The translations under genes and the position numbers were made by a program. Positions 4,116 through 57,365 of a stretch of 64,000 nucleotides of DNA are shown piece by piece. The DNA is taken from contig OZ220480.1 in assembly GCA_965116025.1 (NCBI GenBank), positions 193,335 through 257,334 of the forward strand. The letters are read 5' to 3'. The first letter of the stretch is position 1. Each line of letters starts with the position of its first letter. The stretch is from an uncultured candidatus Porisulfidus sp. (GTDB lineage Bacteria; Pseudomonadota; Gammaproteobacteria; Poriferisulfidales; Poriferisulfidaceae). Under the pieces are notes generated by a model. It did no database searches. It had not been told where the DNA came from and saw only the letters and a program-made list of their open reading frames with translations.

Positions 4116-5947
4116 TCAGTCGAACCAGTGCACGATCCCCAGCGCGAACATCTCGATCTCCGCCCCCGGCGTCCCCAGGCCGGTCCCCGAGATGCCCTGC
4201 CCGTAGGTCCCGTTGTCGTCGTTGTTGACTTCCGAATACGTCAGCCGCAACTCGGTTCCCGCCGGCATCGTGTAGAACACCCCGACGTTCCAGGCGTCCG
4301 CCGCCGTCTCGTCCCAGTCCCCCATGCAGTAGTTGCACGACAGCTCCAGGTCGTCGGCGTCCATATAGGAGAAGCGGAAGTCCAGCGGGCCGCCGAACTT
4401 GATCTTGCCCGACACCATCCAGGCGTCCCGCTCGATCTTCACGTTGGAGCTCATGGTTTGCTTCAGCTTGGCGTCGGCGTATTCCGTCATCTTCTTCTCG
4501 TACTCCATCACCTTCTCGTTGTGCGGCTCCAGGGCGTACTCCCTCGCCTTCGCCACGTATTCCTTGTAGAAGTCCATGTCCGTCTTGTCATCCAGATACT
4601 TCGTGGTCGATGTCTTCAACTTGTTCAGGATCGTGGTGCTCAGCTTGGTAGTCAGGGCCGCTTTGTACGCCGTGTTCAATCCCCCAGTGGTGAACCTGTA
4701 GTAGCGATCGATCGCTGGGATGTTCTGATAATTACTCCAACTTTGATTATCGAAGTATTTTTTATAGGACCCCCCGTATCACTAGGACTTAAGTCGGTGG
4801 GCCATACGGCCAGACCGGCCATGTTGGTCCTCCATTTCCCGTTCTCGTCCGTCAGCAGCTCGACCGCGAGCCCCCCGGTCATCTGCGCCTCTATCAGCGG
4901 CTTCAGCTCCGCTTCGGTGGGCATCGTCGGCTTCGTCGGCATGTCCATGTCGGCGGGGGCCATGACCTTCATGTCGTAGTAGGTTTTCTCGAAATGGTTG
5001 ATGTTGGGATCGGTACCGCCGTACCCGAACGCCTTCATGGCCTTGTTGATGTCGGTCACGCCGTGGAACTCGTACTCCAAAGTCTCCCACATGGCCGACA
5101 GTTGAACGCTCATGCCGTCGCCCAGGTCCATGATGTAGCGCCCGGCCAGGCGGAAGCTCTCCGCGTCCGAGCTCTCCATCTCCCCGACCGAGACCGCCGT
5201 CCAGTCCTCGTGGTCCTGCCAGGTCGCCGCCAGCCACAGCGGGCCGTTCGTGTACGCCAGGCTGCTCGAGCGGATCACCGGGTCGATCTTCCCGCCGCCG
5301 GTCGGCGCCATCGTCTCGTCGCGGTTCCCGGCCGTCCAGGCGAAGCGGAACACGAAGCCGTTCCAGTTCGGCGACCAGTACTGGATGATGTTCTCCTGGC
5401 GCCGGTTGAAGCCGGTGTCGTAGCCGGCCCCGGCGTAGTTGAACTCCGCCCCGGAGAAGCCGGTCGCCGGCCCCGACGCCGACGCCTGCTGGTCGAAGTC
5501 GCCGGTGTTGTAGAAGATGGTGTTGGCTCCGACCGAGCCCATGATGCTGGTGTGCGAGTCGGCTCCGGCGTCGTAGAACGGGTCCACCCACTGGGCCACG
5601 CCCTCGTTGTACGGCAGCAGCCAGGTGGCGAACATGATCTCGCCGGCCATCGGGTGCGCCAGCCCGATCTTGGAGTTGCGGTTGCACCAGCCGGTGCCGC
5701 CGGCGAAGTGGTTGTAGTAGGTGAACTGCTCGCACTGCAGGTTCACCTTTATGTCGCTCATGCCGGTGTCCACGCTGGCCGAGAAGCCGATGTTCCCGGC
5801 GTTCGACTGGATGCGGTCGAAGCTGCGCCCGCCGTCGATGTCCACGAACTCCCACGAGTGGTTCTGCCACCCGTACAGGTTGATCGTCTCCGCCCGCGCC
5901 GGCAGCGCCAGCGCCGAAAGCCCCGCCGCCAATAGCGCCAATGGCAT
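4116..5947 (-). pseudogene. porin-like family copy 2 (N-form A, cassette type Y), frameshifted
   Basis: ATG at 5947 (MPLALLAAG...). The reading frame breaks near 4680-4800, giving two overlapping ORFs (4676..5947 and 4116..4679). Both halves are homologous to the intact copy 4. Low-complexity odd sequence sits at 4740-4800. Confidence 0.6.
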
Positions 5948-6171
5948 TAGAAATGGTATCGTAGGGCATCAGCAAATCGAAAAACTCTCCACGGAATATC
6001 TGGCCAAAACGTCGCTTCTCCCATATATTGTTCGGTGAAATTCCGCCTCCCAAACTCTCGATTTCCGTTCCCTAGATTCCGCATTGAATTGCGGCACCAT
6101 TTCCTTTGTGGGAAAATAAGACGCTATGGGACGGGATTATCAATGTTGGCAAGGAAACCGGGAGAGGGTTG

Positions 6172-7395
6172 ATGAGAGGAACTAGAGTCCCACCGCGAAT
6201 CGAGCGATTAAAGGTGCAGAACTTCCGCGCGTTGCGCGATGTGGAGCTAAACCTTACGCCGCTCACCGTGTTACTTGGCCCAAATGGCAGTGGAAAGTCC
6301 ACGATTTTTGATGTCTTCGCCTTTTTGGCAGAGTGTTTTGAGAGCGGGCTACGTCGAGCGTGGGAAAAACGTGGCAAAGCTCGGGAACTTAGGTCGCGGG
6401 GCGGAGAGGGTCCTATATTGATTGAAATCGCATATCGCGAAAAACCGCGCACACCCTTGATCACGTATCACCTTCAAGTGGACGAGAAAAATGGCCGACC
6501 TCGCGTGGTCTGCGAATGGCTCCGATGGAAGCGGGGGCGCTACGGGCAACCGTTCAAATTTCTCGATTACGCGGACGGAGTTGGGCAGGTCATCTCGGGT
6601 GAGATGCCTGACGCGCGGGCTGAGCGGATAGAGATCCCTTTGAGTTCTCCTGATACGCTCGCGGTTAACGCGCTTGGCCAACTGGCGGAAAATTCTCGTG
6701 TCGTCGAGCTGAGAGATTTCATCATGGGATGGCATGTGTCCTACTTGTCAGCCGAGGATACGAGAGGACAACCGGAAGCGGGGCCACAGGAACGCCTGAG
6801 CAGGACAGGAGACAATCTCGCTAACGTGATTCAATATCTGTCCGAAGAACATCCAGAACTTTTGGAGTCCATTCTTGGCAGCATCAGAGAAAGGATCCCG
6901 AAAGCCCAGAGCGTGGTGGCGGACCAGATGCCGGACGGAAGGTTGTTGCTGAAAATCAAGGATGCCCCATTCGCTGACCCCGTCATGGCGCGCTTCGCGT
7001 CCGATGGCACACTTAAAGTGCTCGCCTATCTAGTCTTGTTGCGTGATCCAACCCCTCCTCCTTTTATTGGCATTGAGGAGCCGGAGAACTTCCTGCATCC
7101 ACGCCTGCTTCACGGTTTGGCGGAAGAATGCCGAACCTCCTCCGAGGCCACACAGGTCCTCGTGACCACCCATTCTCCTTTTTTCCTTGATGCGCTTCGT
7201 CCCATGGAAGTTCGGGTGTTGTGGCGCGACGAATTCGGTTACACGAGATGCGACCCCTTGGATGAGAACAAAAAAATTTTGGCGTTTATGGAAGCGGGCG
7301 CCCAGCTTGGAGATCTTTGGATGGAAGGACATTTCGGGGTTGGAGATCCGCTGACTTCGGAAGGAATGGCCATGCCGGGAAGAGGCGGGAGCTGA
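6172..7395 (+). CDS. OLD/ABC-type (AAA_21-like) ATPase
   Basis: Walker [10 protein letters not shown] near the N-terminus. Walker B/D-loop [13 protein letters not shown] and H-loop LVTTHSPFF near the C-terminus. ATG at 6172 is preceded by GGGAGAGG (the ORF track begins at 6106). Confidence 0.7.
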
Positions 7396-7396
7396 C

Positions 7397-8014
7397 ATGC
7401 CCGCGTCTCATTTGGAGTTCCTCGTGGAGGAGCGTTCCATGGAAGCGTTTCTCGTTGCTTGGCTACCAAAGTTTCTGCCGGAGGGCTGCACTTTCAAGGT
7501 CTATGCGCACCAAGGCAAAAACGCGTTGTTGAGAAAAATCGAAGATCGACTCGGAGCATATAAGGCATGGATGCCAAACGAATGTCGTATCGTGGTGGTA
7601 GTGGACCGCGACCGGGATGCGTGCGATGAACTCAAGCTCAAGATGGAGCGATTCTGTGAGAAAGCGGGATTGCGGTCGAGACGGGCCGCTGATGGTTCGG
7701 ACTGGCAAGTGGTGACGCGGATAGCCATAGAAGAGCTTGAAGCATGGTATTTTGGGGACTGGCAGGCGGTGTTGGCCGCTTTTCCGGGTGTCGCGGAGAA
7801 TATCCCAGACCGCGCGGCTTACCGGGATCCAGATGCGATTCAAGGTGGAACTTGGGAGGCATTCGAGCGGATTCTCCAGAAACATGGATATTTCGCGCAA
7901 GGACTGGCAAAAGCGCAGGCCGCTAGCGAGATTGGCCGACATATCGACCCTGTTCGCAATCGGTCCCGCAGTTTTATCGTTTTTCGCGATGCCATCGTCG
8001 ATGCCACCACATGA
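7397..8014 (+). CDS. DUF4276-like (Toprim-like) partner protein of the ATPase
   Basis: Start lies 1 bp after the ATPase stop (translationally coupled). The acidic motifs EFLVEERSMEAF, VVVVDRDRD and IEELEAWYF match my recollection of the DUF4276 consensus; this is not confirmed by a search. Confidence 0.55.
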   Translation: MPASHLEFLVEERSMEAFLVAWLPKFLPEGCTFKVYAHQGKNALLRKIEDRLGAYKAWMPNECRIVVVVDRDRDACDELKLKMERFCEKAGLRSRRAADGSDWQVVTRIAIEELEAWYFGDWQAVLAAFPGVAENIPDRAAYRDPDAIQGGTWEAFERILQKHGYFAQGLAKAQAASEIGRHIDPVRNRSRSFIVFRDAIVDATT

Positions 8015-22729: not shown

Positions 22730-23336
22730 TCCGAGCCGGGAATCTCGAGCCCGGCATCCTGAAGCAACTCGATCAGGCGGATCATCGGCAACCCAATCAG
22801 AGCGGTCGGGTCGTCGCCTATGATGTGATCCGTGAGGCTGGCTCCCAGTCCCTCGGATCTGAAACTCGCGGTGCAGTTGTATGGCCTCTCGCTTCGCAGG
22901 TAACGCTTGATTACGTCCTCGCTCAATTCCTTGTAACGTACCGTGTGGCGGGACTCGGAGTAGCGGCATACGCCGGCGCTGGTGTCCAGAAGGCATAGAC
23001 CGGTCAGGAAAGCCACCTCCTGCCCGCTGAGCTGGCGTAGTTGCTCCACGGCCGCGCCATGCGTTCCCGGCTTGCCCAGCAACTTCCCGCTTAGCTCCGC
23101 GCACTGGTCGCTACTGATTATCAGGGAATCCGGGTGTCGGACCCCAACCTCCGCGGCCTTCTCATGGGCGAGCCGTCGCACGTAGTCCGAAACCCTCTCG
23201 CCTAGCCGCGGGGTCTCGTCGATATCGGGCGCGTCCACCGTGAAGTCTAGGCGCAAGCGTTCAAGAAGTTCTCGACGATAAGGAGAGCTGCTACCGAGCA
23301 CGAGAGGACGCGTCGCCGCCATTTCGATCATCATGG
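22726..23336 (-). CDS. maf: Maf-family nucleoside triphosphate pyrophosphatase
   Basis: LVLGSSSPYRRELLERLRLDFTVDAPDIDE...SLIISSDQ. The likely start is the MIEMAATRPLVLGSSS Met (the ORF track extends to 23382). Confidence 0.8.
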
Positions 23337-25010
23337 CGAGAGACCGACAGGATTTTCGTTGGACAGCGGAGCTCGGTTCCATCGCGCGTCTCGCTTCCGG
23401 TCTGGATTCGCGATTACGTGCAAGTAGGAAGTGGCGCGGCTAAACCCGACGTAAGCGAATCGGTCTGGACTCTCTCCAGAAGGTCGGTCGAGCACCACGA
23501 CCACCGCGAGGGATTCCAGTCCCTTAAAACGAGCGATCGTCTCGGTCACGATGCCATCGGCATCATACTGGCAAAAAACAGTGTCGGATACATCCATATC
23601 GAGGAGGCGATTCCGGAGAGACGGCGTTTCGCAAAGCACGACAATATCCTGCCGTTCAAAGTTCTCGGACAATAGGCGGTCAACGACTCGGCGTACGATC
23701 TTTTCTGGTTTCTGGGAAGGCTGGAGGTCCGTCCAGCGGGGTTTCGGACCGGATGCCCCGGAAGCGAGCGTGGTCGCCCCAGTGGTAGCCGCGACTCGCT
23801 CGGCGATCGGTTGCGCGTTTCGGCAGTTCATGGACAAATCGATCATCACGAAACCTTCGGGCGTGTCCCAGTCCCTTTCCCACAGTTTTTGGTCCTCATC
23901 CGCCAAAATCAGGAACGGAGTGTCCGAACCCCTTTCGCAAAGCGTCTGGAGCGCCTCGAGCCAAAGGCTGGAAAAGTCTTGGCCCTCATCAACGATGATC
24001 GCGTCGAATCGCGCGCCCGCCCGCTCCGCCGCGTCAACGAGAATATAAGGCACTTCCTTCTCCCACCATTCCGCTTGAGGCGCGTCGGGAACCTCGACTC
24101 CGGCCTGGCGCGCCGTGGACATGCATAAGGCATGAAACGTGTGCGCCGCAACCCCCTCCAAGGAGGGGTCGTCCCCGAGTTTTTGACCAAGCAGTTTGTT
24201 GTAGCAGGTCAGCAGCACTCGATGACCCGACGCGTGAAGTTGCCTCGCTTTCTCGCAAGCGAGAATCGTTTTTCCTGTGCCAGCCCCACCGAACACGACG
24301 ACTCGCCGATTCCGGCGCATCATGTCAAGAACCCGAATCTGCTCCTCGGTCAAATTCACAAGGCGGACCTTGGCATCGTGCGCCTCATCAGACAGGGTTC
24401 GCCGAACCTGGACGGTAGGCGCCAAGGCGTTAGCGATATCTTGGACTTGACGGAAGGATAAATCCGCGGAAAGCCGCCAATGAAGAACTACATCGCGAAT
24501 GGCGGAAGGCGCGTCCGTCAAATGGCCCGCGTCCAACGCGATCGCTTTCGGGGCATCTGGACCCAACAACGGCAATTCCCGCAAGTCAGGGAACCAAACG
24601 GCATGGCACGTCGGAACGCGACGCTCGAATCGCTCCGCTATGAACCGACCCAGAGCGGCCTTGGACGCTACCGCCTGCTCAAACGGGTTTTTGATGTCGT
24701 GGACTTCCTCGTTTCGGTCCCGGGACTTCCAACGTCCGGCTTCGACGTGGACTCCTCCGCCCTTCACCTCAAGCACGACGATCCCATGCGACCGATGAAT
24801 CAGGACAAAATCCGCTTCTCCGTCGCCGGTCCGTCGCCCGCGCGGGCCCTGCCAAGCGACGGAGTGAAGCACCGTCCAATCATCGGATAGCGTAGACAGC
24901 GCGTCGTAGACCTTCCGTTCCGAATCGGCATCGACTCCGACTGTGGGGCAGGCGAATGTGATGGCCATGACCGTGGCGTTTCCGTTCGACTCCGGCTCAC
25001 CCGAAGTCAA
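23331..25010 (-). CDS. NERD-domain protein fused to a UvrD/DUF2075-like P-loop helicase
   Basis: N-terminal NERD-like region (SERKVYDALSTLSDDWTVLHSV...GEADFVLIHRSHGIVVLEVKGG) and a Walker A motif VVVFGGAGTGKTILACEKARQL. The likely start is MAITFACP at ~24965. Confidence 0.6.
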   Translation of the reverse strand: MTSGEPESNGNATVMAITFACPTVGVDADSERKVYDALSTLSDDWTVLHSVAWQGPRGRRTGDGEADFVLIHRSHGIVVLEVKGGGVHVEAGRWKSRDRNEEVHDIKNPFEQAVASKAALGRFIAERFERRVPTCHAVWFPDLRELPLLGPDAPKAIALDAGHLTDAPSAIRDVVLHWRLSADLSFRQVQDIANALAPTVQVRRTLSDEAHDAKVRLVNLTEEQIRVLDMMRRNRRVVVFGGAGTGKTILACEKARQLHASGHRVLLTCYNKLLGQKLGDDPSLEGVAAHTFHALCMSTARQAGVEVPDAPQAEWWEKEVPYILVDAAERAGARFDAIIVDEGQDFSSLWLEALQTLCERGSDTPFLILADEDQKLWERDWDTPEGFVMIDLSMNCRNAQPIAERVAATTGATTLASGASGPKPRWTDLQPSQKPEKIVRRVVDRLLSENFERQDIVVLCETPSLRNRLLDMDVSDTVFCQYDADGIVTETIARFKGLESLAVVVVLDRPSGESPDRFAYVGFSRATSYLHVIANPDRKRDARWNRAPLSNENPVGLSP

Positions 25011-46541: not shown

Positions 46542-48449
46542 TCAGTCGAACCAGTGCACGATCCCCAGCGCGAACATCTCGATCTCCGCGCCAGCCACCC
46601 CCAGCCCGGTCCCCGAGATGCCCTGCCCGTAGGTCCCGTTGTCGTCGTTGTTGACTTCCGAATACGTCAGCCGCAGCTCGGTCCCCGCCGGCATCGTGTA
46701 GAACACCCCCACGTTCCAGGCGTCCGCCGCCGTCTCGTCCCAGTCTCCCATGCAGTAGTTGCATGACAGCTCCAGGTCGTCGGCGTCCATGTAGGAGAAG
46801 CGGAAGTCCAGCGGGCCGCCGAACTTGATCTTGCCCGACACCATCCAGGCGTCCCGCTCGATCTTCACGTTCGACCCCATGCTCTTGGCCATCCGGGCCG
46901 TCTCCACGGCCTTCATCTCCGCCTCCTTGGCCGTTTCCTTCATCTTCTTGGCCTCGGCCGTCGCATGCTTCACGATGTTGTCGTAGAGCCATTTGTCGCC
47001 AGTCACATCACCGGTATCCGCTCCTGAGACAACTTTATTGGGTAGCTTCAGGGCCGTGAGCTCCGTGGAGGTCAGCCGGGTGGTGTAGAACGACTGCTTG
47101 CGCATCACCTCTTTCAGATTGCCCGCTCGAATAGCCGTTTTCGCGGCGTCAGTGGTGAGAAAAGCTCCGTACTCGCCGTGAACCGTGGACGTACTAAGAT
47201 TGTTGAAGTTTCTCGTCGTCCAACCGGTCAGCATTCCTTTATCGTTCGTGATCAGCGTATTGAATAAAGCGCCAGTTACGGCTCTTGTGATGGATGTACC
47301 GGCATTAGTACTCCCAGAAGGCGTCATTAATCCTTTCTCGTCCGTCAGAAACTCAAGCGCCGCTCCACGAGTTTTCTGCGCGTCGATCTCGGCCTGGGTG
47401 GGGTCCATGACCGTCTCGTCCACCTTCTTGGTGGCCATGTCCATGGCGTAGGCCTGCTCGGCGTAGGAGGACGCGAAGTTCCCGTAGCCGAACGCCGCCA
47501 TCGCCTTCTCGACCGTGGTCACGCCGTGGAACTCGTACTCCAAAGTCTCCCACATGGCGGACAATTGAACGCTCATGCCGTCGCCCAGGTCCATGATGTA
47601 GCGCCCGGCCAGACGGAAGCTCTCCGCGTCCGAGCTCTCCATCTCCCCGACCGAGACCGCCGTCCAGTCCTCGTGGTCCTGCCAGGTCGCCGCCAGCCAC
47701 AGCGGGCCGTTCGTGTACGCCAGGCTGCTCGAGCGGATCACCGGGTCGATCTTGGGGCCGGCCGCGTAATTACCTTTGGCGTCCTTGAGCGCGTGGGTCT
47801 CGTCGCGATTGCCGGCCGTCCAGGCGAAGCGGAACACGAAGCCGTTCCAGTTCGGCGACCAGTACTGGATGATGTTCTCCTGGCGCCGGTTGAAGCCGGT
47901 GTCGTAGCCGCCCCCGGCGTAGTTGAACTCGTTGCCGGAGAAGCCAGTGCCAGGATTGGACGCCGACGCCTGCTGGTCGAAGTCGCCGGTGTTGTAGAAG
48001 ATGGTGTTGGCCCCGACCGAGCCCATGATGCTGGTGTGCGAGTCGGCCCCGGCGTCGTAGAACGGGTCCACCCATTGGGCCACGCCCTCGTTGTACGGCA
48101 GCAGCCAGGTGGCGAACATGATCTCGCCGGCCATCGGATGCGCCAGCCCGATCTTGGAGTTGCGGTTGCACCAGCCGGTGCCGCCGGCGAAGTGGTTGTA
48201 GTAGGTGAACTGCTCGCACTGCAGGTTCACCTTTATGTCGCTCATGCCGGTGTCCACGCTGGCCGAGAAGCCGATGTTCCCGGCGTTCGACTGAATGCGG
48301 TCGAAGCTGCGCCCGCCGTCGATGTCCACGAACTCCCACGAGTGGTTCTGCCACCCGTACAGGTTGATCGTCTCCGCCCGCGCCGACAGCGACAGCGCCG
48401 ACAGCGACGCCGCCAGCAGCGTCAATGGGATTAGAAATGGTTTTTTCAT
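46542..48449 (-). CDS. porin-like family copy 6 (N-form B, cassette type Z), best-supported expressed copy
   Basis: Canonical ATG with AGGAG 8 bp upstream, and a classical signal peptide MKKPFLIPLTLLAASLSALSLSARA. Confidence 0.85.
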   Translation of the reverse strand: MKKPFLIPLTLLAASLSALSLSARAETINLYGWQNHSWEFVDIDGGRSFDRIQSNAGNIGFSASVDTGMSDIKVNLQCEQFTYYNHFAGGTGWCNRNSKIGLAHPMAGEIMFATWLLPYNEGVAQWVDPFYDAGADSHTSIMGSVGANTIFYNTGDFDQQASASNPGTGFSGNEFNYAGGGYDTGFNRRQENIIQYWSPNWNGFVFRFAWTAGNRDETHALKDAKGNYAAGPKIDPVIRSSSLAYTNGPLWLAATWQDHEDWTAVSVGEMESSDAESFRLAGRYIMDLGDGMSVQLSAMWETLEYEFHGVTTVEKAMAAFGYGNFASSYAEQAYAMDMATKKVDETVMDPTQAEIDAQKTRGAALEFLTDEKGLMTPSGSTNAGTSITRAVTGALFNTLITNDKGMLTGWTTRNFNNLSTSTVHGEYGAFLTTDAAKTAIRAGNLKEVMRKQSFYTTRLTSTELTALKLPNKVVSGADTGDVTGDKWLYDNIVKHATAEAKKMKETAKEAEMKAVETARMAKSMGSNVKIERDAWMVSGKIKFGGPLDFRFSYMDADDLELSCNYCMGDWDETAADAWNVGVFYTMPAGTELRLTYSEVNNDDNGTYGQGISGTGLGVAGAEIEMFALGIVHWFD

Positions 48450-49181
48450 TTTTTGACTCCTGAAAAATTAGTCTCCGCAAGGCAATCACTCCTCACGAAC
48501 AATGTGGTGAAATTACCACATTTCGGCGTGGATTATATAGCCTAGAGATGATGTCAATCGGCCATGCTGTTGTTTTTTAGAAACAAGTTTGGTTTAGGTA
48601 AGGTGGATGTCGATATCAGCATCTTTCTAATTTAAAAACAACAGGATTTCTTTACCTACTGCATTGCCTCGATAGGCGTATAGATATCCGAAACTGATAA
48701 TGTTTTCTAGCTTTAGGAGATTTTCTGGAGTCATAGCGAGATGATCACTTCCCATGGATATGGTAGTAAAACGACCACATTTCTGCACGGTTATAGAACC
48801 TCTGGACACAGGCAAACGTCATGCCTATTGTTAGATTTTAGTGACAGGAGCGAATGAGAAAACCAGAAGCTGGTTTCAGTTTTCTATTGTTCTAAAAACA
48901 ACAACATATCTTTCCACCAAAATTTCTATCGGATAGGATATAGTGAACGTATCAAGTTCGCCGTTATCAACTCGGCAACTGATTAGCGAATTGGCCTACA
49001 AAAATGAACGGAGCGGCGACGAAAATGCGTTCAAGCCAATTCGATTTTGCAACTGGCTTGGCACGGGTTTTCATGGTCCAAATATAGTAATGAATCCAAT
49101 TATCAATAGTGACCGTCGCTTGCTCCCGCCTGAAATCTCGTTATCAGAGCTCGGAAGAGCGACGCTCAAACTTAATCCTTA

Positions 49182-50357
49182 ATGAAGGAGAAAATAAAAA
49201 TGACAGCAAGAGACTTTGAGATGGTTGAGGAATCTGGCCGTTCGGTCCCTTCCAAAACGTACGCTAGCTACGTCGGACTCGATGTCCACAAGGACAGCAT
49301 CGCCGTCGCCGTCGCTCATGCGGGCCGAGGAGCTCCAGAATCCTGGGGTACCATACCGAACACGAAGAAAGCGATCGCAAAACTCGTGGATCGGCTGTAT
49401 GCGAAGAACGAGACTTTCCTGATTTGCTACGAGGCTGGCCCATGCGGATACACCCTGTATCAGAACCTGATTGCCATGGGGGTAGATTGCCGGGTCGTGG
49501 ATCCTCCAAGAAACGAAAAGATCAAGACGGACCAGCGGGACGCGTTACGTTTGGCACGGCTTTTGCGCGCTGGAGAACTGGTAGAGATTTGGGTGCCGGA
49601 TCAAGAGCAAGAAGCGATTCGCGACCTGTGCCGTTGTCGAGCCGATTTCATGGTGCAGCAACGGAAACTGCGCCAGCAATTCAACGCTTTCTTGCTACGC
49701 CATGGACACCATTGGCCAACAAACTGGAAACGCTGGACGCAAAAACATCTCGATTGGTTGGAAAAGCTCGATTTCCCGTATATTTTCATGAGCGAGGTTC
49801 GAGATGAATATATCTCGGCCGTCCGCCTGTCCGCGTCAAGAATTCTTGATCTCGACAAAAAAATCGACAAGGCTGTGCAGGCTTGGTCGTGGGCGCCAGT
49901 GGTCAACAGCCTGAAAGCGTTGCGTGGGTTCGACCAGTTATCCGCGGTTATGTTGCTATCCGAATTGGGTGATATCAGTCGTTTCGAATCTCCTAGTCAA
50001 CTTATGGGCTACTTGGGACTGGTTCCGTGCGTGTATAGCTCTGGGGCGTATCACCGCACCGGGGGCGCCACGCGAGCGGGAAACCGTCATGCCCGGCAAG
50101 TATTGATCGATTCGGCTTGGTGCTACCGGTTCCCCGCTCGTCAAACCGCCTACATGAGCCGCAAATCGGAAGGCGCATCCGCATACGCCCAAACTATTTC
50201 GTGGAAAGCGCAAAAACGATTGTGCGGACAATATCGGAAGTTGACCACGGCGGGAAAGAGCCAGAAAGTTGTTTGCGTGGCGATTGCGAGAGAATTGTCG
50301 GGGTTTGTCTGGGATATCGTCTGTCACGAAAAAGCCCGCCTAAGCCGAGTGAGATAG
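49182..50357 (+). CDS. IS110-family transposase
   Basis: YVGLDVHKDSIAVAV...ICYEAGPCGYTLY, with a C-terminal IS116/IS110/IS902-type domain. Embedded in an AT-rich segment whose IS boundaries are undetermined. Confidence 0.85.
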   Translation: MKEKIKMTARDFEMVEESGRSVPSKTYASYVGLDVHKDSIAVAVAHAGRGAPESWGTIPNTKKAIAKLVDRLYAKNETFLICYEAGPCGYTLYQNLIAMGVDCRVVDPPRNEKIKTDQRDALRLARLLRAGELVEIWVPDQEQEAIRDLCRCRADFMVQQRKLRQQFNAFLLRHGHHWPTNWKRWTQKHLDWLEKLDFPYIFMSEVRDEYISAVRLSASRILDLDKKIDKAVQAWSWAPVVNSLKALRGFDQLSAVMLLSELGDISRFESPSQLMGYLGLVPCVYSSGAYHRTGGATRAGNRHARQVLIDSAWCYRFPARQTAYMSRKSEGASAYAQTISWKAQKRLCGQYRKLTTAGKSQKVVCVAIARELSGFVWDIVCHEKARLSRVR

Positions 50358-50608
50358 GAGGTATATGCCGAGACTTGTCGCAAAAATCAGGGTGCTTCAG
50401 TCTGTCGGAGAATCCTTGTAATTTCTATATCGGTGCGAGACCGTGTATGCTTGATTCGCATATTTGAACTCGTGATCCATGCTATTAGACAAAGGTTCAG
50501 CTCCGCGACTTCTACAGGTCACATCGGTAACCAACCCGAGTTTCATCCATGGCCTGCTATCGCAAATGATTGGAGTATCCTGGTTTTTGCGCCGCGTCTA
50601 GGGGGCAG

Positions 50609-51507
50609 CTACTTGATGCTCTCGAGCCAATGTCCTTCGGAGACAATCCTGATTGGAAATTCTTGGGTACGCAACGTCACAGCCTTCTCAATTTTTCGGC
50701 CATACGCGGACTGTATCCAAGTACCCTCAGCATAGGATCCGATCACCAAATAATCCGTTGCTCTTGTGGGGGATTTTTGGCAAATTCCCTGCCGTGTTTG
50801 GATTTCACGCTCGCACTGTATGCGGCTACCATAGAAAAACTTTCCAGTCAGGCAAAATTTGCGACCCGCGAATACGACTTCCGGGGGTGGGTCATCCAGC
50901 CATAGCGTTGTCGCATTCAGGCACTCCCCAACTTCCGTCTTCCCGCCGACCAAGCCGCTCAGCAGTTGTAGCAATTGCATAGTTCTATCGGTATCTCCCG
51001 CGTTCTGCCCCCAAAAAGAGTTCAGCTTCTCTCGGAACGCCTTGGCCACTGGATTGTTGAATGTCTCTTCATGATCTATCAGCCAAGTACGCAACGCCCG
51101 TGTCTCGCTTTCAGCAATTTTTCCATCCGCGATCAAGCCGCGGCATAGCCCCAGCAATTCGGGGATGTAACCACCGTCCAATTCGTTGATTGCAATTCGA
51201 CCGTGACCAAATGATTCCTCTCCACCCGAATAATCATCCAAAAGAATATGAACTAGTTGCGTCAGTTCCTCGCTTTCACTGGTATCCAGCGTCTCGTCCT
51301 TGAGCATTTGTCCGACGCGCGTCCGCAGAATTTCCACGAGAGAATTCCCTGTCTCTTGATCGATCAGCCAAGCATAAAGCGATTCCACTTCGCTTTGGAC
51401 GATTTTTCCGTCCGCGATCAGGCCCTTGCATAGGCCTATTAGTTCTGAACTTTGGCGTCCATTCAAACGACCACGATGGTACTTCAAGAAATTCGATTGA
51501 TCAGACA
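50609..51507 (-). CDS. protein with two TerB-like repeats and a C-terminal BRCT domain
   Basis: Repeats LIGLCKGLIADGKIVQSEVESLYAWLID and LLGLCRGLIADGKIAESETRALRTWLID. C-terminal region FAGRKFCLTGKFFYGSRIQCEREIQTRQGICQKSPTRATDYLVIGSYAEGTWIQSAYGRKIEKAVTLRTQEF is BRCT-like. Start MSDQ at 51507. The ORF-track extension to 51811 is antisense read-through into copy 7. Confidence 0.6.
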
Positions 51508-51590
51508 TTAGGAAGAGCGACGTTTTGGCCAGATATTCCGTGGAGAGTTTTTCGATTTGCTGATGCCCTACGATACCATTTCTAATCCCA

Positions 51591-53486
51591 TTGACGCTGC
51601 TGGCGGCGTCGCTGTCGGCGCTGTCGCTGTCGGCGCGGGCGGAGACGATCAACCTGTACGGGTGGCAGAACCACTCGTGGGAGTTCGTGGACATCGACGG
51701 CGGGCGCAGCTTCGACCGCATCCAGTCGAACGCCGGGAACATCGGCTTCTCGGCCAGCGTGGACACCGGCATGAGCGACATAAAGGTGAACCTGCAGTGC
51801 GAGCAGTTCACCTACTACAACCACTTCGCCGGCGGCACCGGCTGGTGCAACCGCAACTCCAAGATCGGGCTGGCGCACCCGATGGCCGGCGAGATCATGT
51901 TCGCCACCTGGCTGCTGCCGTACAACGAGGGCGTGGCCCAGTGGGTGGACCCGTTCTACGACGCCGGGGCCGACTCGCACACCAGCATCATGGGCTCGGT
52001 CGGCGCGAACACCATCTTCTACAACACCGGCGACTTCGACCAGCAGGCGTCGGCGTCGGGGCCGGCGACCGGCTTCTCCGGGGCGGAGTTCAACTACGCC
52101 GGGGCCGGCTACGACACCGGCTTCAACCGGCGCCAGGAGAACATCATCCAGTACTGGTCGCCGAACTGGAACGGCTTCGTGTTCCGCTTCGCCTGGACGG
52201 CCGGCAACCGCGACGAGACGATGGCGCCGACCGGCGGCGGGAAGATCGACCCGGTGATCCGCTCGAGCAGCCTGGCGTACACGAACGGCCCGCTGTGGCT
52301 GGCGGCGACCTGGCAGGACCACGAGGACTGGACGGCGGTCTCGGTCGGGGAGATGGAGAGCTCGGACGCGGAGAGCTTCCGCCTGGCCGGGCGCTACATC
52401 ATGGACCTGGGCGACGGCATGAGCGTTCAATTGTCGGCCATGTGGGAGACTTTGGAGTACGAGTTCCACGGCGTGACCACGGTCGAGAAGGCGATGGCGG
52501 CGTTCGGCTACGGGAACTTCGCGTCCTCCTACGCCGAGCCGATCTACGCCATGGACATGGCCACCAAGAAGGTGGACGAGACGGTCATGGACCCCACCCA
52601 GGCCGAGATCGACGCCCAGATGACCCGCGGGCTCGCCATCCAGCTGCTCACGGATGACCGAGGACGGGAGAAAGAGGACGATGATGGCAACAGCTTTTTG
52701 GCTACCGCTCTAGGCCAGGAAATAGTGACGACGGCCGCTCCCAACAAGCCCGCCGAGTGGACGTTCAAAGAAATAGATGCCAGTGCTGACCTGCCAACGA
52801 CTACGGTCATAGGAGAGTACCGGCAGTATCTTAGTACCGCCCTCAAGAAAATCGCCGGTCCGGGCGGACATCAAACCTCGGGGCTCATCTACAGCGTGAA
52901 TCCCGTGAAGCATCGCCAGTCGCAGCCGTTCTGGACCACCCGGCTGACCTCCACGGAGCTCACGGTCCTGAAGCTGGGCTACGCGACGACCATGATCGCC
53001 TCATCCGGGGAGAATCAGAAAGTGTTTGGCGACCCTGCGCTGTACACGGCGATCATGAACGCGGCGAAGGAAAATGCCAAAACGAAAAAGCAGATGGACA
53101 AGGAGGCGGAGATGAAGAAGGTGGAGGACGCCCGGATGGCCAAGAGCATGGGCTCGAACGTGAAGATCGAGCGGGACGCCTGGATGGTGTCGGGCAAGAT
53201 CAAGTTCGGCGGCCCGCTGGACTTCCGCTTCTCCTACATGGACGCCGACGACCTGGAGCTGTCATGCAACTACTGCATGGGAGACTGGGACGAGACGGCG
53301 GCGGACGCCTGGAACGTCGGGGTGTTCTACACGATGCCGGCGGGGACCGAGCTGCGGCTGACGTATTCGGAGGTCAACAACGACGACAACGGGACCTACG
53401 GGCAGGGCATCTCGGGGACCGGGCTGGGGACGGCTGGCGCGGAGATCGAGATGTTCGCGCTGGGGATCGTGCACTGGTTCGACTGA
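51591..53486 (+). CDS. porin-like family copy 7 (N-form A, cassette type Z)
   Basis: Same 5' box as copies 2 and 5. No ATG (TTG at 51591). Intact frameworks. Confidence 0.7.
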   Translation: MTLLAASLSALSLSARAETINLYGWQNHSWEFVDIDGGRSFDRIQSNAGNIGFSASVDTGMSDIKVNLQCEQFTYYNHFAGGTGWCNRNSKIGLAHPMAGEIMFATWLLPYNEGVAQWVDPFYDAGADSHTSIMGSVGANTIFYNTGDFDQQASASGPATGFSGAEFNYAGAGYDTGFNRRQENIIQYWSPNWNGFVFRFAWTAGNRDETMAPTGGGKIDPVIRSSSLAYTNGPLWLAATWQDHEDWTAVSVGEMESSDAESFRLAGRYIMDLGDGMSVQLSAMWETLEYEFHGVTTVEKAMAAFGYGNFASSYAEPIYAMDMATKKVDETVMDPTQAEIDAQMTRGLAIQLLTDDRGREKEDDDGNSFLATALGQEIVTTAAPNKPAEWTFKEIDASADLPTTTVIGEYRQYLSTALKKIAGPGGHQTSGLIYSVNPVKHRQSQPFWTTRLTSTELTVLKLGYATTMIASSGENQKVFGDPALYTAIMNAAKENAKTKKQMDKEAEMKKVEDARMAKSMGSNVKIERDAWMVSGKIKFGGPLDFRFSYMDADDLELSCNYCMGDWDETAADAWNVGVFYTMPAGTELRLTYSEVNNDDNGTYGQGISGTGLGTAGAEIEMFALGIVHWFD

Positions 53487-54084: not shown

Positions 54085-55998
54085 TCAGTCGAACCAATGC
54101 ACGATCCCCAGCGCGAACATCTCGATCTCCGCCCCCGGCGTCCCCAGCCCGGTTCCCGAGATGCCCTGCCCGTAGGTCCCGTTGTCGTCGTTGTTGACTT
54201 CCGAATACGTCAGCCGCAGCTCGGTCCCCGCCGGCATCGTGTAGAACACCCCCACGTTCCAGGCGTCCGCCGCCGTCTCGTCCCAGTCTCCCATGCAGTA
54301 GTTGCATGACAGCTCCAGGTCGTCGGCGTCCATGTAGGAGAAGCGGAAGTCCAGCGGGCCGCCGAACTTGATCTTGCCTGACACCATCCAGGCGTCCCGC
54401 TCGATCTTGACATTGGAGCCCATGCTCTTGGCCATCCGGGCCGCCTCCACATCCTTCACCTTCTTGTCATGAGCCGTTTTCGCGGCCGTCTCCTTCATCT
54501 CCTTGGCATTGGTCTTCGCCTGCGTCATGATCGCCGTGTACAGTTGTTGGAAACCCCACACCGGATCGCTTGTCGAAGGACTGGTGTCTGGGCCTGGCCG
54601 CGCGAGGGCCGTGAGCTCCGTGGAGGTCAGCCGGGTGGTCCAGAACGGCTGCTTCTGGCGAAGCTCCACGTAATCCCCGCCAGCGTTATATGCAACTCTG
54701 TTGTCAAAAAGAAATTTGTTGTACTCTCCGTACACCGTGGTCGTCGGAAGGTTGCTGTTATTGGTACTGGTGAATCTCCACGCGGTGGGATCGCCCGGCT
54801 TGTCGTTCGTGTTTATGGTATGGGCTATGGCGTTAATTACTCCCTGTTGATCGGTAGCTACAGGATTGCTTGCGCTTGCCCTATACAGTTTAAACAATCC
54901 CCGGTCATCCGTGATCAACTCGATGGCGAGCCCACGGGTCTTCTGCGCGTCGATCTCGGCCTGGGTGGGGGCCGCCACCTCCCCCATCGGGTCCACCTTC
55001 TTGGTGGTCTCGTCCATGGCGTAGATCGGCTCGGCGTAGGAGGACGCGAAGTTCCCGTAGCCGAACGCCGCCATCGCCTTCTCGACCGTGGTCACGCCGT
55101 GGAACTCGTACTCCAAAGTCTCCCACATGGCCGACAATTGAACGCTCATGCCGTCGCCCAGGTCCATGATGTAGCGCCCGGCCAGACGGAAGCTCTCCGC
55201 GTCCGAGCTCTCCATCTCCCCGACCGAGACCGCCGTCCAGTCCTCGTGGTCCTGCCAGGTCGCCGCCAGCCACAGCGGGCCGTTCGTGTACGCCAGGCTG
55301 CTCGAGCGGATCACCGGGTCGATCTTGGGGCCGGCCGCGTAATTACCTTTGGCGTCCTTGAGCGCGTGGGTCTCGTCGCGATTGCCGGCCGTCCAGGCGA
55401 AGCGGAACACGAAGCCGTTCCAGTTCGGCGACCAGTACTGGATGATGTTCTCCTGGCGCCGGTTGAAGCCGGTGTCGTAGCCGCCCCCGGCGTAGTTGAA
55501 CTCGTTGCCGGAGAAGCCAGTGCCAGGATTGGACGCCGACGCCTGCTGGTCGAAGTCGCCGGTGTTGTAGAAGATGGTGTTGGCCCCGACCGAGCCCATG
55601 ATGCTGGTGTGCGAGTCGGCCCCGGCGTCGTAGAACGGGTCCACCCATTGGGCCACGCCCTCGTTGTACGGCAGCAGCCAGGTGGCGAACATGATCTCGC
55701 CGGCCATCGGATGCGCCAGCCCGATCTTGGAGTTGCGGTTGCACCAGCCGGTGCCGCCGGCGAAGTGGTTGTAGTAGGTGAACTGCTCGCACTGCAGGTT
55801 CACCTTTATGTCGCTCATGCCGGTGTCCACGCTGGCCGAGAAGCCGATGTTCCCGGCGTTCGACTGAATGCGGTCGAAGCTGCGCCCGCCGTCGATGTCC
55901 ACGAACTCCCACGAGTGGTTCTGCCACCCGTACAGGTTGATCGTCTCCGCCCGCGCCGACAGCGACAGCGCCGACAGCGACGCCGCCAGCAGCGTCAA
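54085..55998 (-). CDS. porin-like family copy 8 (N-form B, cassette type Z')
   Basis: Intact frameworks. The N-terminus reads ...TTGIQKPFLIPLTLL, with ATT in place of the ATG of copy 6 and no RBS. Confidence 0.7.
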   Translation of the reverse strand: MTLLAASLSALSLSARAETINLYGWQNHSWEFVDIDGGRSFDRIQSNAGNIGFSASVDTGMSDIKVNLQCEQFTYYNHFAGGTGWCNRNSKIGLAHPMAGEIMFATWLLPYNEGVAQWVDPFYDAGADSHTSIMGSVGANTIFYNTGDFDQQASASNPGTGFSGNEFNYAGGGYDTGFNRRQENIIQYWSPNWNGFVFRFAWTAGNRDETHALKDAKGNYAAGPKIDPVIRSSSLAYTNGPLWLAATWQDHEDWTAVSVGEMESSDAESFRLAGRYIMDLGDGMSVQLSAMWETLEYEFHGVTTVEKAMAAFGYGNFASSYAEPIYAMDETTKKVDPMGEVAAPTQAEIDAQKTRGLAIELITDDRGLFKLYRASASNPVATDQQGVINAIAHTINTNDKPGDPTAWRFTSTNNSNLPTTTVYGEYNKFLFDNRVAYNAGGDYVELRQKQPFWTTRLTSTELTALARPGPDTSPSTSDPVWGFQQLYTAIMTQAKTNAKEMKETAAKTAHDKKVKDVEAARMAKSMGSNVKIERDAWMVSGKIKFGGPLDFRFSYMDADDLELSCNYCMGDWDETAADAWNVGVFYTMPAGTELRLTYSEVNNDDNGTYGQGISGTGLGTPGAEIEMFALGIVHWFD

Positions 55999-56093
55999 TG
56001 GGATTAGAAATGGTTTTTGAATCCCAGTTGTGGCAAAATTAGTCTAGAGTTTCCCGTTAGACGGGTTTCCGAATAAACTGACTGGTCAAAATC

Positions 56094-56699: not shown

Positions 56700-57365
56700 T
56701 CAGCTCGAAGGTTCTCTCTGATCCTGCGCGGGATGTCCCGCGCGGGCCGCGTTCTGGTATTGGTCTCGCCAATAGTTGACGATCATGCAGAACACTCGCG
56801 CCGTCATGGCGGCGTCATAGTTGGCGCTGTGCGCCTGGCTCTCGTCCCAGCCAAGTCCCGCTCGTTCCGCGATCCTCGATAGCACCGTTTGTCCAAACGC
56901 TACCGCCCCCAAGCTGACCGTATCCAGTGTACTGAACGGGTGAAACGGATTTCTCTTGATTCGGCAACGCTCACAAGCGGCATTGATAACCGCTAGATCG
57001 AACGCCGCGTTGTGCCCAAGCAAAACCGCTCGCTGACAGTGATGCTCTCGAACCGCTTTCCGGATCGCCTTGAAAATGGTTTCCAGAGCCTTTTTCTCAG
57101 ATATCGCCTCGCGTTCAGGATCATGCGGATCAATGCCAATCAACTGCAGTGAGGCCGGATCGGTCCGAGCTCCTTCGAACGGATGGACCGCGAGGGAAAT
57201 GGGACTCTCGGGGAACAGATAACCGTCGGCGTCCATGCGCAACAATACCGCCGAGACTTCCAACAACGCGTCGGTTTCTGGAACCAGCCCACCGGTTTCC
57301 ACGTCCACCGCGACCGGCAGGAAACCGCGAAATCGGTTTTCTAGACTAATCCCTGTCATTTCCAT
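56700..57365 (-). CDS. rnt: ribonuclease T
   Basis: DEDDh exonuclease motifs (VAVDVETGGL, HNAAFDLAVI, ANYDAAMTARVF). Confidence 0.85.
   Translation of the reverse strand: MEMTGISLENRFRGFLPVAVDVETGGLVPETDALLEVSAVLLRMDADGYLFPESPISLAVHPFEGARTDPASLQLIGIDPHDPEREAISEKKALETIFKAIRKAVREHHCQRAVLLGHNAAFDLAVINAACERCRIKRNPFHPFSTLDTVSLGAVAFGQTVLSRIAERAGLGWDESQAHSANYDAAMTARVFCMIVNYWRDQYQNAARAGHPAQDQREPSS

Follow-up and report, generated by a model that had tools for sequence, protein, structure and literature searches.

In an uncultured candidatus Porisulfidus sp., a gene for a 299-residue protein that combines two helical modules with a BRCT domain is enclosed by two inversely oriented porin genes whose 5' ends face it. 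This position raises the question whether the protein works in a proposed switch that exchanges the expressed porin or travels on that switch as a passenger. We addressed this question with the 64,000-nucleotide stretch of contig OZ220480.1 that carries the gene, referred to below as the window, and with the loci that encode relatives of its product. So far, the BRCT protein is best read as a passenger, and for the switch machinery itself the evidence points to the neighboring IS110-family recombinase and its RNA.

The coding sequence occupies positions 50609..51508 on the minus strand. A first-pass annotation, made from the letters of the DNA, had given 50609-51507; its minus-strand frame and the end at 50609 hold, and its other boundary is one base off frame. 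The start is the conserved ATG at 51508, as all 27 full-length relatives in an alignment of 28 sequences begin at the same methionine (MSD...). A longer open reading frame of 400 residues with a GTG start (50609..51811) was rejected; it runs into the adjacent porin gene and its N-terminal 101 residues are absent from the homologs. A look-up of the exact protein (P0001) found no record, a phmmer search of the PDB with the single sequence gave no match, and a PADLOC match to GajB (E=0.0034) was dismissed as spurious.

The protein matched the phrog_3989 profile with E=2.7e-57 in two stretches reaching up to profile position 292 of 296, and is a cytoplasmic member of this family of small phage, prophage and plasmid proteins. 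It shares with them the architecture of helical module plus BRCT domain and matches over its full length; it differs in that the helical module is doubled, and membership as such gives no mechanism. Judged by its sequence, the window gene is a further, duplicated-module member of a catalogued, uncharacterized family. A homolog search at the protein level returned about 59 full-length two-module relatives (46-66% identity) with many invariant residues, together with many one-module forms of about 200 amino acids that matched phrog_3989 with E values of 1e-49 to 1e-60. The genome scan yielded 239 relatives, with two-module forms in Ca. Porisulfidus and allied sponge-associated metagenome-assembled genomes and one-module forms across many phyla; 79 of these loci, again from many phyla, were retained for the analysis of gene neighborhoods. 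Databases name such proteins 'BRCT domain-containing protein' (NCBI, JGI) or, wrongly, 'NAD-dependent DNA ligase'. One relative, P0067, has the N-terminal part of the BRCT protein fused to a Phd antitoxin, probably an artefact of assembly or gene calling.

The C-terminal BRCT domain that the first-pass annotation had suspected was borne out when the Pfam comparison was run on the family. It spans residues ~208-299 (50612..50887, minus strand). Taken alone, the window protein scored 16-16.7 bits against Pfam BRCT (PF00533), under the cut-off of 21.3; the domain was matched by 27 of 28 two-module relatives (best E 1.5e-6) and by 47 of 57 one-module relatives (best 1e-8), with scores such as 35.7 bits for P0078 and 28.1 bits for P0065. 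NCBIfam returned matches to the BRCT ends of PRK06195 and LigA, and the family profile matched the BRCT chains of RFC1 (E=8.9e-7) and LigA (E=4.5e-6), which places the domain in the RFC1/LigA class. The region has the parallel beta-sheet flanked by helices of a BRCT fold. T221, G222 and R229 are invariant in the 28 aligned sequences, and the TG and the following arginine align with the TG and R of the RFC1 BRCT. The RFC1 p140/LigA class is said, after Kobayashi et al., to bind 5'-phosphate DNA ends. Going by its class and these conserved positions, the BRCT domain is predicted to bind a phosphorylated ligand, most probably a DNA end or nick with a 5'-phosphate, like its counterparts in RFC1 and LigA. 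The window protein differs from RFC1 p140 and LigA in that no ligase, clamp-loader or exonuclease domain is attached, and its DNA binding is a prediction.

The surroundings of the relatives are those of mobile and variable DNA. The one-module homologs on a further 120 IMG/VR viral contigs, mostly 30-50 kb long, had CI-type repressors (phrog_4) as their dominant neighbors (17 of 140 flanking genes), next to other repressors, CII-like regulators and anti-repressors. Many of these homologs (L087-L166) lie in the immunity region of putative temperate phages, beside CI-type repressors or anti-repressors. In bacteria, the neighbors of one-module forms are a variable-island mix of AAA_15/21 with OLD-TOPRIM, integrases, HigB and helix-turn-helix genes. 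BLAST clustering of neighbors, and Pfam and PHROG scans of the 106 bacterial and 140 viral neighbor proteins, detected no conserved partner of the one-module forms. The two-module relatives L082 and L083 (51-53% identity) adjoin IS1595, a DNA methylase with HATPase_c_3, HipA toxin-antitoxin modules, DndB and SNF2/NOV_C/methylase genes.

We therefore lean, if without great firmness, towards the view that the BRCT protein is an accessory protein of mobile elements that is carried here as cargo, and we rank this above a role as accessory of the switch. Because its BRCT pocket would bind a 5'-phosphate DNA end or nick, with the helical modules as the sensor or adaptor part, the protein may assist mobile elements as a binder of DNA ends or nicks, in conflicts of the superinfection, defence or lysogeny type; the two-module gene of Ca. 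Porisulfidus would then be conserved cargo of a 3.1-kb invertible segment. Several points speak against this view. The phrog_3989 family is uncharacterized and has no homolog of defined function, and PADLOC holds no model for it. The predicted DNA-end binding derives solely from the BRCT class and the conserved T-G...R, and no confident position could be assigned to the usual pocket lysine. Finally, the 5' ends of two inverted porin cassettes flank the gene in all 12 Porisulfidus-type loci and in the distant locus L002, which could mean that it is functional in the switch.

The helical modules had been taken for two TerB-like repeats, and of this claim the repeat stood. Module 1 (residues ~14-95; 51224..51469, minus strand) is a four-helix bundle with the hairpins IADGKIxxSE and LKDETLDxSESEE, and module 2 (residues ~109-190; 50939..51184, minus strand) is its duplicate, as seen in the family alignment and by BLASTP, where residues 5-82 of each half shared 40% identity (E=2e-17). 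Both carry the motif L(I/L)GLC(K/R)GLIADGKIxxSExxxLxxWLID, and module 2 is the counterpart of the single module in the ~200-residue forms. If the modules were true TerB domains, the protein could belong to Ter-type stress- or metal-sensing systems. There is some likeness to TerB (PF05099; 2JXU) in that every module has two short helix-loop-helix hairpins of the TerB-like (A/E)DGxhxxxE pattern. With hmmscan, the TerB profile reached E<1 in 7 of 28 two-module and 14 of 57 one-module members, with a best E of 0.0034 and none at the gathering score, and a DUF533 profile was matched below threshold in 15 of 57 one-module members (best E 0.0045). The comparison set for hhalign consisted of the verified 2JXU TerB sequence, close TerB sequences and 56 diverse TerB sequences. 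The probability was 1.6-3% against canonical TerB and 21-32% against the diverse set, and the latter alignment, which pairs the ADG hairpin with TerB positions 45-70, was confined to 26 columns around ADGxhxxxE; outside this motif the comparisons of sequence, profile and fold gave no significant match to TerB. Neither the window nor the 106 and 140 neighbor proteins contained ter or TerY-type genes, and no ter operon was seen. All of these tests remained below threshold, homology of the modules to TerB could not be demonstrated, and 'TerB-like' appears to describe a motif. We regard a true TerB identity as improbable, the least credible of the alternatives treated here.

To judge the BRCT gene as cargo, its carrier has to be described. 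The window contains eight Porin_4 cassettes that start at 1749+, 5956-, 25472+, 29817-, 44047+, 48440-, 51576+ and 56013- and strictly alternate in orientation. The homology of all eight begins at exactly one common base, in front of the box CCATTTCTAAT. Since the cassettes alternate and all start at the box, each segment between a divergent pair is bounded by inverted boxes, a shufflon-like layout. Only cassette 6 (cassette A; 46542..48449, minus strand) is an expression site, the sole cassette with AGGAG-N7-ATGAAAAAA in front of its box and the only one of the eight with a ribosome-binding site and ATG. Its box, the expressed junction, lies at 48430..48440 (minus strand), and just upstream, at 48450..48560 (minus strand), follow a promoter-like TTGACA/TATAAT, conserved hairpins of the 5' untranslated region, the ribosome-binding site and the porin start codon, all situated on the segment. 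Cassette 7 (cassette B; 51576..53486, plus strand), recognized as Porin_4 by Pfam and delimited by junction alignments, starts at its box (51576..51586, plus strand), the silent junction beside the BRCT gene; it has neither ribosome-binding site nor ATG and is presumed silent.

The segment between these two porin 5' ends (48442..51574) measures 3133 bp and is proposed to be invertible, on the basis of its inverted repeats, its GC content and its orientations in relatives. Its GC content is 0.50-0.56 vs 0.60-0.65 in the flanks, and the inverted arms at the porin 5' ends are 645 nt long, 97% identical and 3133 nt apart. From the expressed to the silent side, the segment comprises the promoter/ATG end, about 730 nt of non-coding DNA, the IS110-family recombinase gene, about 250 nt of non-coding DNA and, convergent with the recombinase gene, the BRCT gene. 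According to an alignment of the eight cassette 5' ends, a spacer of 67 nt (51509..51575) separates the ATG of the BRCT gene from the porin box, in agreement with the earlier description of the gene as divergent from copy 7, and 66 nt of it (51510-51575) are identical to 5957-6022 beside the silent cassette 2, just as had been noticed for the shared upstream region. A plain insertion sequence that had jumped into a porin gene was considered and rejected, as two complete inverted boxes bound the segment and cassette 6 follows immediately on the promoter and ATG.

Related genomes contain the same arrangement. Twelve Porisulfidus-type loci share the order of silent porin, BRCT gene, recombinase and promoter end joined to a complete porin, and in an alignment of nine loci that includes the distant L002, TTGACA-16-GACAAT, the hairpins, the AGGAG ribosome-binding site and ATGAAAAAA are conserved on the segment. 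The orientation of the segment was read against outer markers, PPK and polyprenyl synthase on one side and the genes for a 165-residue (p165) and a 783-residue (p783) protein on the other. L001, L005 and L008 form class I and L003, L006, L012 and the window class II. These classes are interspersed on two trees, one built from recombinase plus target and one from housekeeping genes, and inversion has therefore occurred at least twice, with breakpoints always at the box. The idea of cassette switching, raised by the first-pass annotation, is thus strongly supported for the locus: a unique promoter and start lie on an invertible segment between inverted cassette 5' ends, the other cassettes are without them, and both orientations occur among species.

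The recombinase (49182..50357, plus strand) has 391 residues and belongs to the DEDD enzymes of the IS110/IS1111 family. It scored 229 bits against NF033542 (cut-off 140), matched PF01548 (9.4e-17) with its DEDD/RuvC-like N-domain and PF02371 (1.9e-17) with its Transposase_20 C-domain, and contains GLVPCVYSSG at residue 279, which corresponds to the GL-P----SG (Ser-Gly) motif described for IS110/IS1111-type recombinases (PMC11187229). The gene is resident, with one copy per locus at a syntenic position across species, and the protein is 83-89% identical to the copy in L003, a divergence like that of the housekeeping neighbors. The marks of a mobile element were not found. No inverted repeat of at least 8 nt occurred between the ends of the module in seven of eight Porisulfidus loci, in a search that recovered the known 10-nt repeat of ISSfr2 as positive control, and the module is flanked by no half-targets; whole inverted boxes lie 0.7-3.8 kb off instead. 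With neither subterminal repeats nor half-target flanks, the module is therefore read as a probably immobilized recombinase-RNA pair aimed at the porin boxes.

In IS1111-type elements, the non-coding region downstream of the recombinase gene specifies a seekRNA or bridge RNA whose two matches to the target strands overlap (PMC11187229, PMC11208160). The corresponding region in the window (50376..50596, plus strand) appears to encode a conserved structured RNA of this kind, as indicated by a 12-locus alignment, covariation, folding energy and homology to ISSfr2. Behind the recombinase stop codon, mean column identity over the 12 loci was 89%, far above any coding sequence here. RNAalifold predicted a long closing stem and two arms with 65 pairs (98.7% of cells paired); 8 pairs showed compensatory changes, vs 2.5+-1.2 in shuffled alignments (0/500) and at most 4 in slid controls, and the window copy folded with z=-4.08. 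No Rfam family matched this RNA at E<=1. Arm 1 holds an internal loop (10x10), and 11 of the 12 sequences share identical loop strands. The 5' strand of this loop, GUAAUUUCUA (50418..50427, plus strand; GGCAUUUCUA in relatives), has the same sense as the box, and the 3' strand, CUAUUAGACA (50482..50491, plus strand; CAAUUAGACA in relatives), is the reverse complement of the box. The two box matches overlap at TCTA and jointly span CATTTCTAATTGC(AT), that is 13-15 nt. In a scan for sites matched by both strands, the porin box ranked first in all 11 related loci, with matches of 10-15 nt.

ISSfr2, a mobile relative with 48% identity whose ends were set by comparison with other records, served as a control for homology. 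Its 3' non-coding region shares the RNA stems GGAGAACCCUYG, GCUCCGCGAC and CGGUAnYCAACCCG, and the site into which it has inserted, CAACTAG|TGGA (unoccupied copy: CTAGTGGA), is matched by its loop strands UUUCCACUA and AACUAGAC. The element (L169:1079-2615; L170:110-135) sits at the terminus of an IS630-family element (CTAG|TGGATGG), which recalls IS1111 members that target the terminal repeats of transposons. A closer relative on a Marinobacter plasmid (55.7% identity) could not be used in its place, as an IS630 element cuts its 3' non-coding region and renders the target unreadable.

From these findings we propose that the segment carries the single promoter, ribosome-binding site and ATG for the set of porin cassettes, together with a recombinase and a guide-type RNA; the internal loop of this RNA fits the invariant box that heads every cassette. 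A flip between inverted boxes would pass the promoter from one cassette to another. In its likeness to IS1111/IS110 systems with seekRNA or bridge RNA, the module has a DEDD recombinase with GL-P----SG and a structured 3' RNA with a loop that matches both strands of a specific site; it differs in having no half-target flanks, subterminal repeats or identified donor loop, and its RNA is directed at a box that occurs in at least two inverted copies within porin genes of the host. Taken by itself, we hold it probable that this is an RNA-guided switch in which an immobilized IS1111-like recombinase, with an RNA loop programmed to the 11-13-nt box, shuffles promoter and start codon among the eight porins.

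Certain observations caution against this proposal. Inversion is deduced from comparison between species only, and a metagenome scan that looked for both orientations in one population recovered a single genotype, on three contigs identical to L004. The match of loop to box in the window is just 9 nt long (ATTTCTAAT), and all eight boxes tie with three chance sites in the 64 kb. Arm 2 of the RNA, where a second, donor-type guide loop was sought, gave no consistent dual-strand match in any locus, and covariation between guide and target was not seen, as the window loop differs from those of relatives and the window box does not.

The inversion could also be the work of general, RecA-dependent homologous recombination between the ~650-nt 5' regions, as in Campylobacter fetus sapA, and the IS110 gene, the RNA and the BRCT gene would then all be bystander cargo. 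The length and 97% identity of the inverted arms fit this explanation, and so does L002, which has the same inverted layout and neither an IS110 gene nor a guide-type RNA within 6 kb. In addition, the fully matching variant of the box tends to stay at the expressed junction in both orientation classes, as expected of crossovers deeper in the repeat. However, the homology of all eight cassettes ends at exactly the same base before CCATTTCTAAT, and the box is invariant across species while neighboring codons diverge. Precisely this box is matched by the two strands of the RNA loop, and the homologous loop of ISSfr2 fits the actual target of that element. The recombinase, moreover, has been retained at the locus with housekeeping-like divergence and without the ends of an insertion sequence. 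We consider RecA-driven inversion a possible explanation, clearly less probable than the RNA-guided switch.

Does the BRCT protein belong to this RNA-guided switch? It had been suggested to be a partner of the porin paralog family, and locally this is correct, given the constant association in the Porisulfidus-type loci and L002; beyond them it fails. As an accessory subunit or regulator, the protein might bind the recombination sites, intermediates such as nicks and 5'-phosphates, or the recombinase, and so control how often or in which direction the segment inverts. In the 12 Porisulfidus-type loci, the gene always lies inside the segment, where 67-95 nt separate its 5' end from the silent box; in 8 of the 12, its 3' end adjoins that of the guide-type RNA. 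The BRCT domain, moreover, is of a DNA-binding class. The gene is also kept in L002, despite different flanking genes and a DUF87/HerA-like ATPase in place of IS110; there, the segment between the inverted porins (L002:4283-7069) has the ATPase gene overlapping the start of the BRCT gene by 17 nt. On the other hand, the two-module relatives L082 and L083 and all one-module relatives, which occur in unrelated islands and prophages, have no porin pair and no IS110 homolog nearby (none beside 68 non-Porisulfidus loci). In L004, L008 and L012, unrelated genes stand between the BRCT gene and the recombinase/RNA unit, and the characterized IS110/IS1111 systems need recombinase and RNA only (PMC11187229, PMC11208160). 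That the BRCT protein forms part of the RNA-guided switch thus seems doubtful, and we judge the specific role of a switch accessory or regulator unlikely. More unlikely still is the combined case of a domesticated, guide-RNA-directed inversion system in which the BRCT protein is a working accessory, for instance by binding nicked intermediates or by controlling how often inversion occurs. Hence we retain the reading of the BRCT protein as a mobile-element accessory that rides on the segment.

Other features of the cassettes deserve mention. Beside cassette 2, the copy of the spacer lies ahead of two genes, one for an AAA_21/AAA_15 ATPase (6106..7395) and one for a DUF4276 protein (7397..8014), which form a defence-like pair in a further patch of low GC content. 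Cassettes 3 and 8 are adjoined by a gene for a NERD plus UvrD-like helicase (23331-25010, minus strand) and one for an RNase_T-type exonuclease (56700-57365, minus strand), and the gaps at the 5' ends of cassettes resemble sites where accessory genes can land. Pairs of PhdYeFM-PIN toxin-antitoxin genes occur in or beside the segment in three relatives (L001:8601-9247, L007:4335-5485, L009:5530-6176). The alignment of cassette 2 (4119-5956, minus strand) with cassette 6 falls into two parts (5956-4838 and 4652-4119) and lacks residues ~374-455; cassette 2 is probably disrupted or frameshifted. Cassette 8 (55990-56022, minus strand) has kept AAAAA before its box and, ahead of these letters, shows ATT-CAA in place of ATG-AAA, and its start looks like a decayed copy of that of the expression site. 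The 5' leader of the expressed porin contains a near-perfect hairpin, AATGTGGTAATTTCACCACATT (48499-48520, minus strand), at a position kept in nine loci; this hairpin may act as an operator or as a regulatory element in the RNA. In L008 (9837-9880), the 'silent' junction reads ATGAAAAA, with one A fewer than the expressed form and the start out of frame; slippage in this A-run could provide a second level of on/off control.

We take the locus to resemble the single-promoter cassette inversion switches of Campylobacter fetus (sapA), Mycoplasma pulmonis (vsa/HvsR) and Moraxella (Piv). In Moraxella, pilin inversion is carried out by Piv, a relative of the IS110 family. Common to these switches and the window are one promoter on an invertible segment, oppositely oriented flanking cassettes with conserved 5' regions, silent cassettes without expression signals, and multiple cassettes of alternating orientation. 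The window differs in that its cassettes are porins of a sponge symbiont, that the start codon also rides on the segment, and that the candidate enzyme is IS1111-like with a guide-type RNA, in place of RecA, a tyrosine recombinase or Piv, which as currently described is free of RNA. In the full-text literature searched, there was no case of a natural bridge-RNA-type recombinase that drives phase variation, and none of the titles and abstracts of the Porisulfidus literature concerns this locus.

For the phrog_3989 family, the frequent place beside prophage repressors makes its members reasonable candidates for lysogeny-linked or defence functions. The setting of the BRCT gene is of greater interest than the gene alone. 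If the proposal is true, no earlier example is found in the searched literature of a bridge- or seekRNA-type recombinase that is kept by its host, without the ends of an insertion sequence, and runs a programmed inversion switch for variation of a surface protein. The locus would be a natural case of guide-RNA-directed inversion, would tie RNA-guided IS110/IS1111 recombination to the classical Piv, sapA and vsa types of phase and antigenic variation, and would suggest how sponge symbionts vary a major outer-membrane protein under phage or host pressure.

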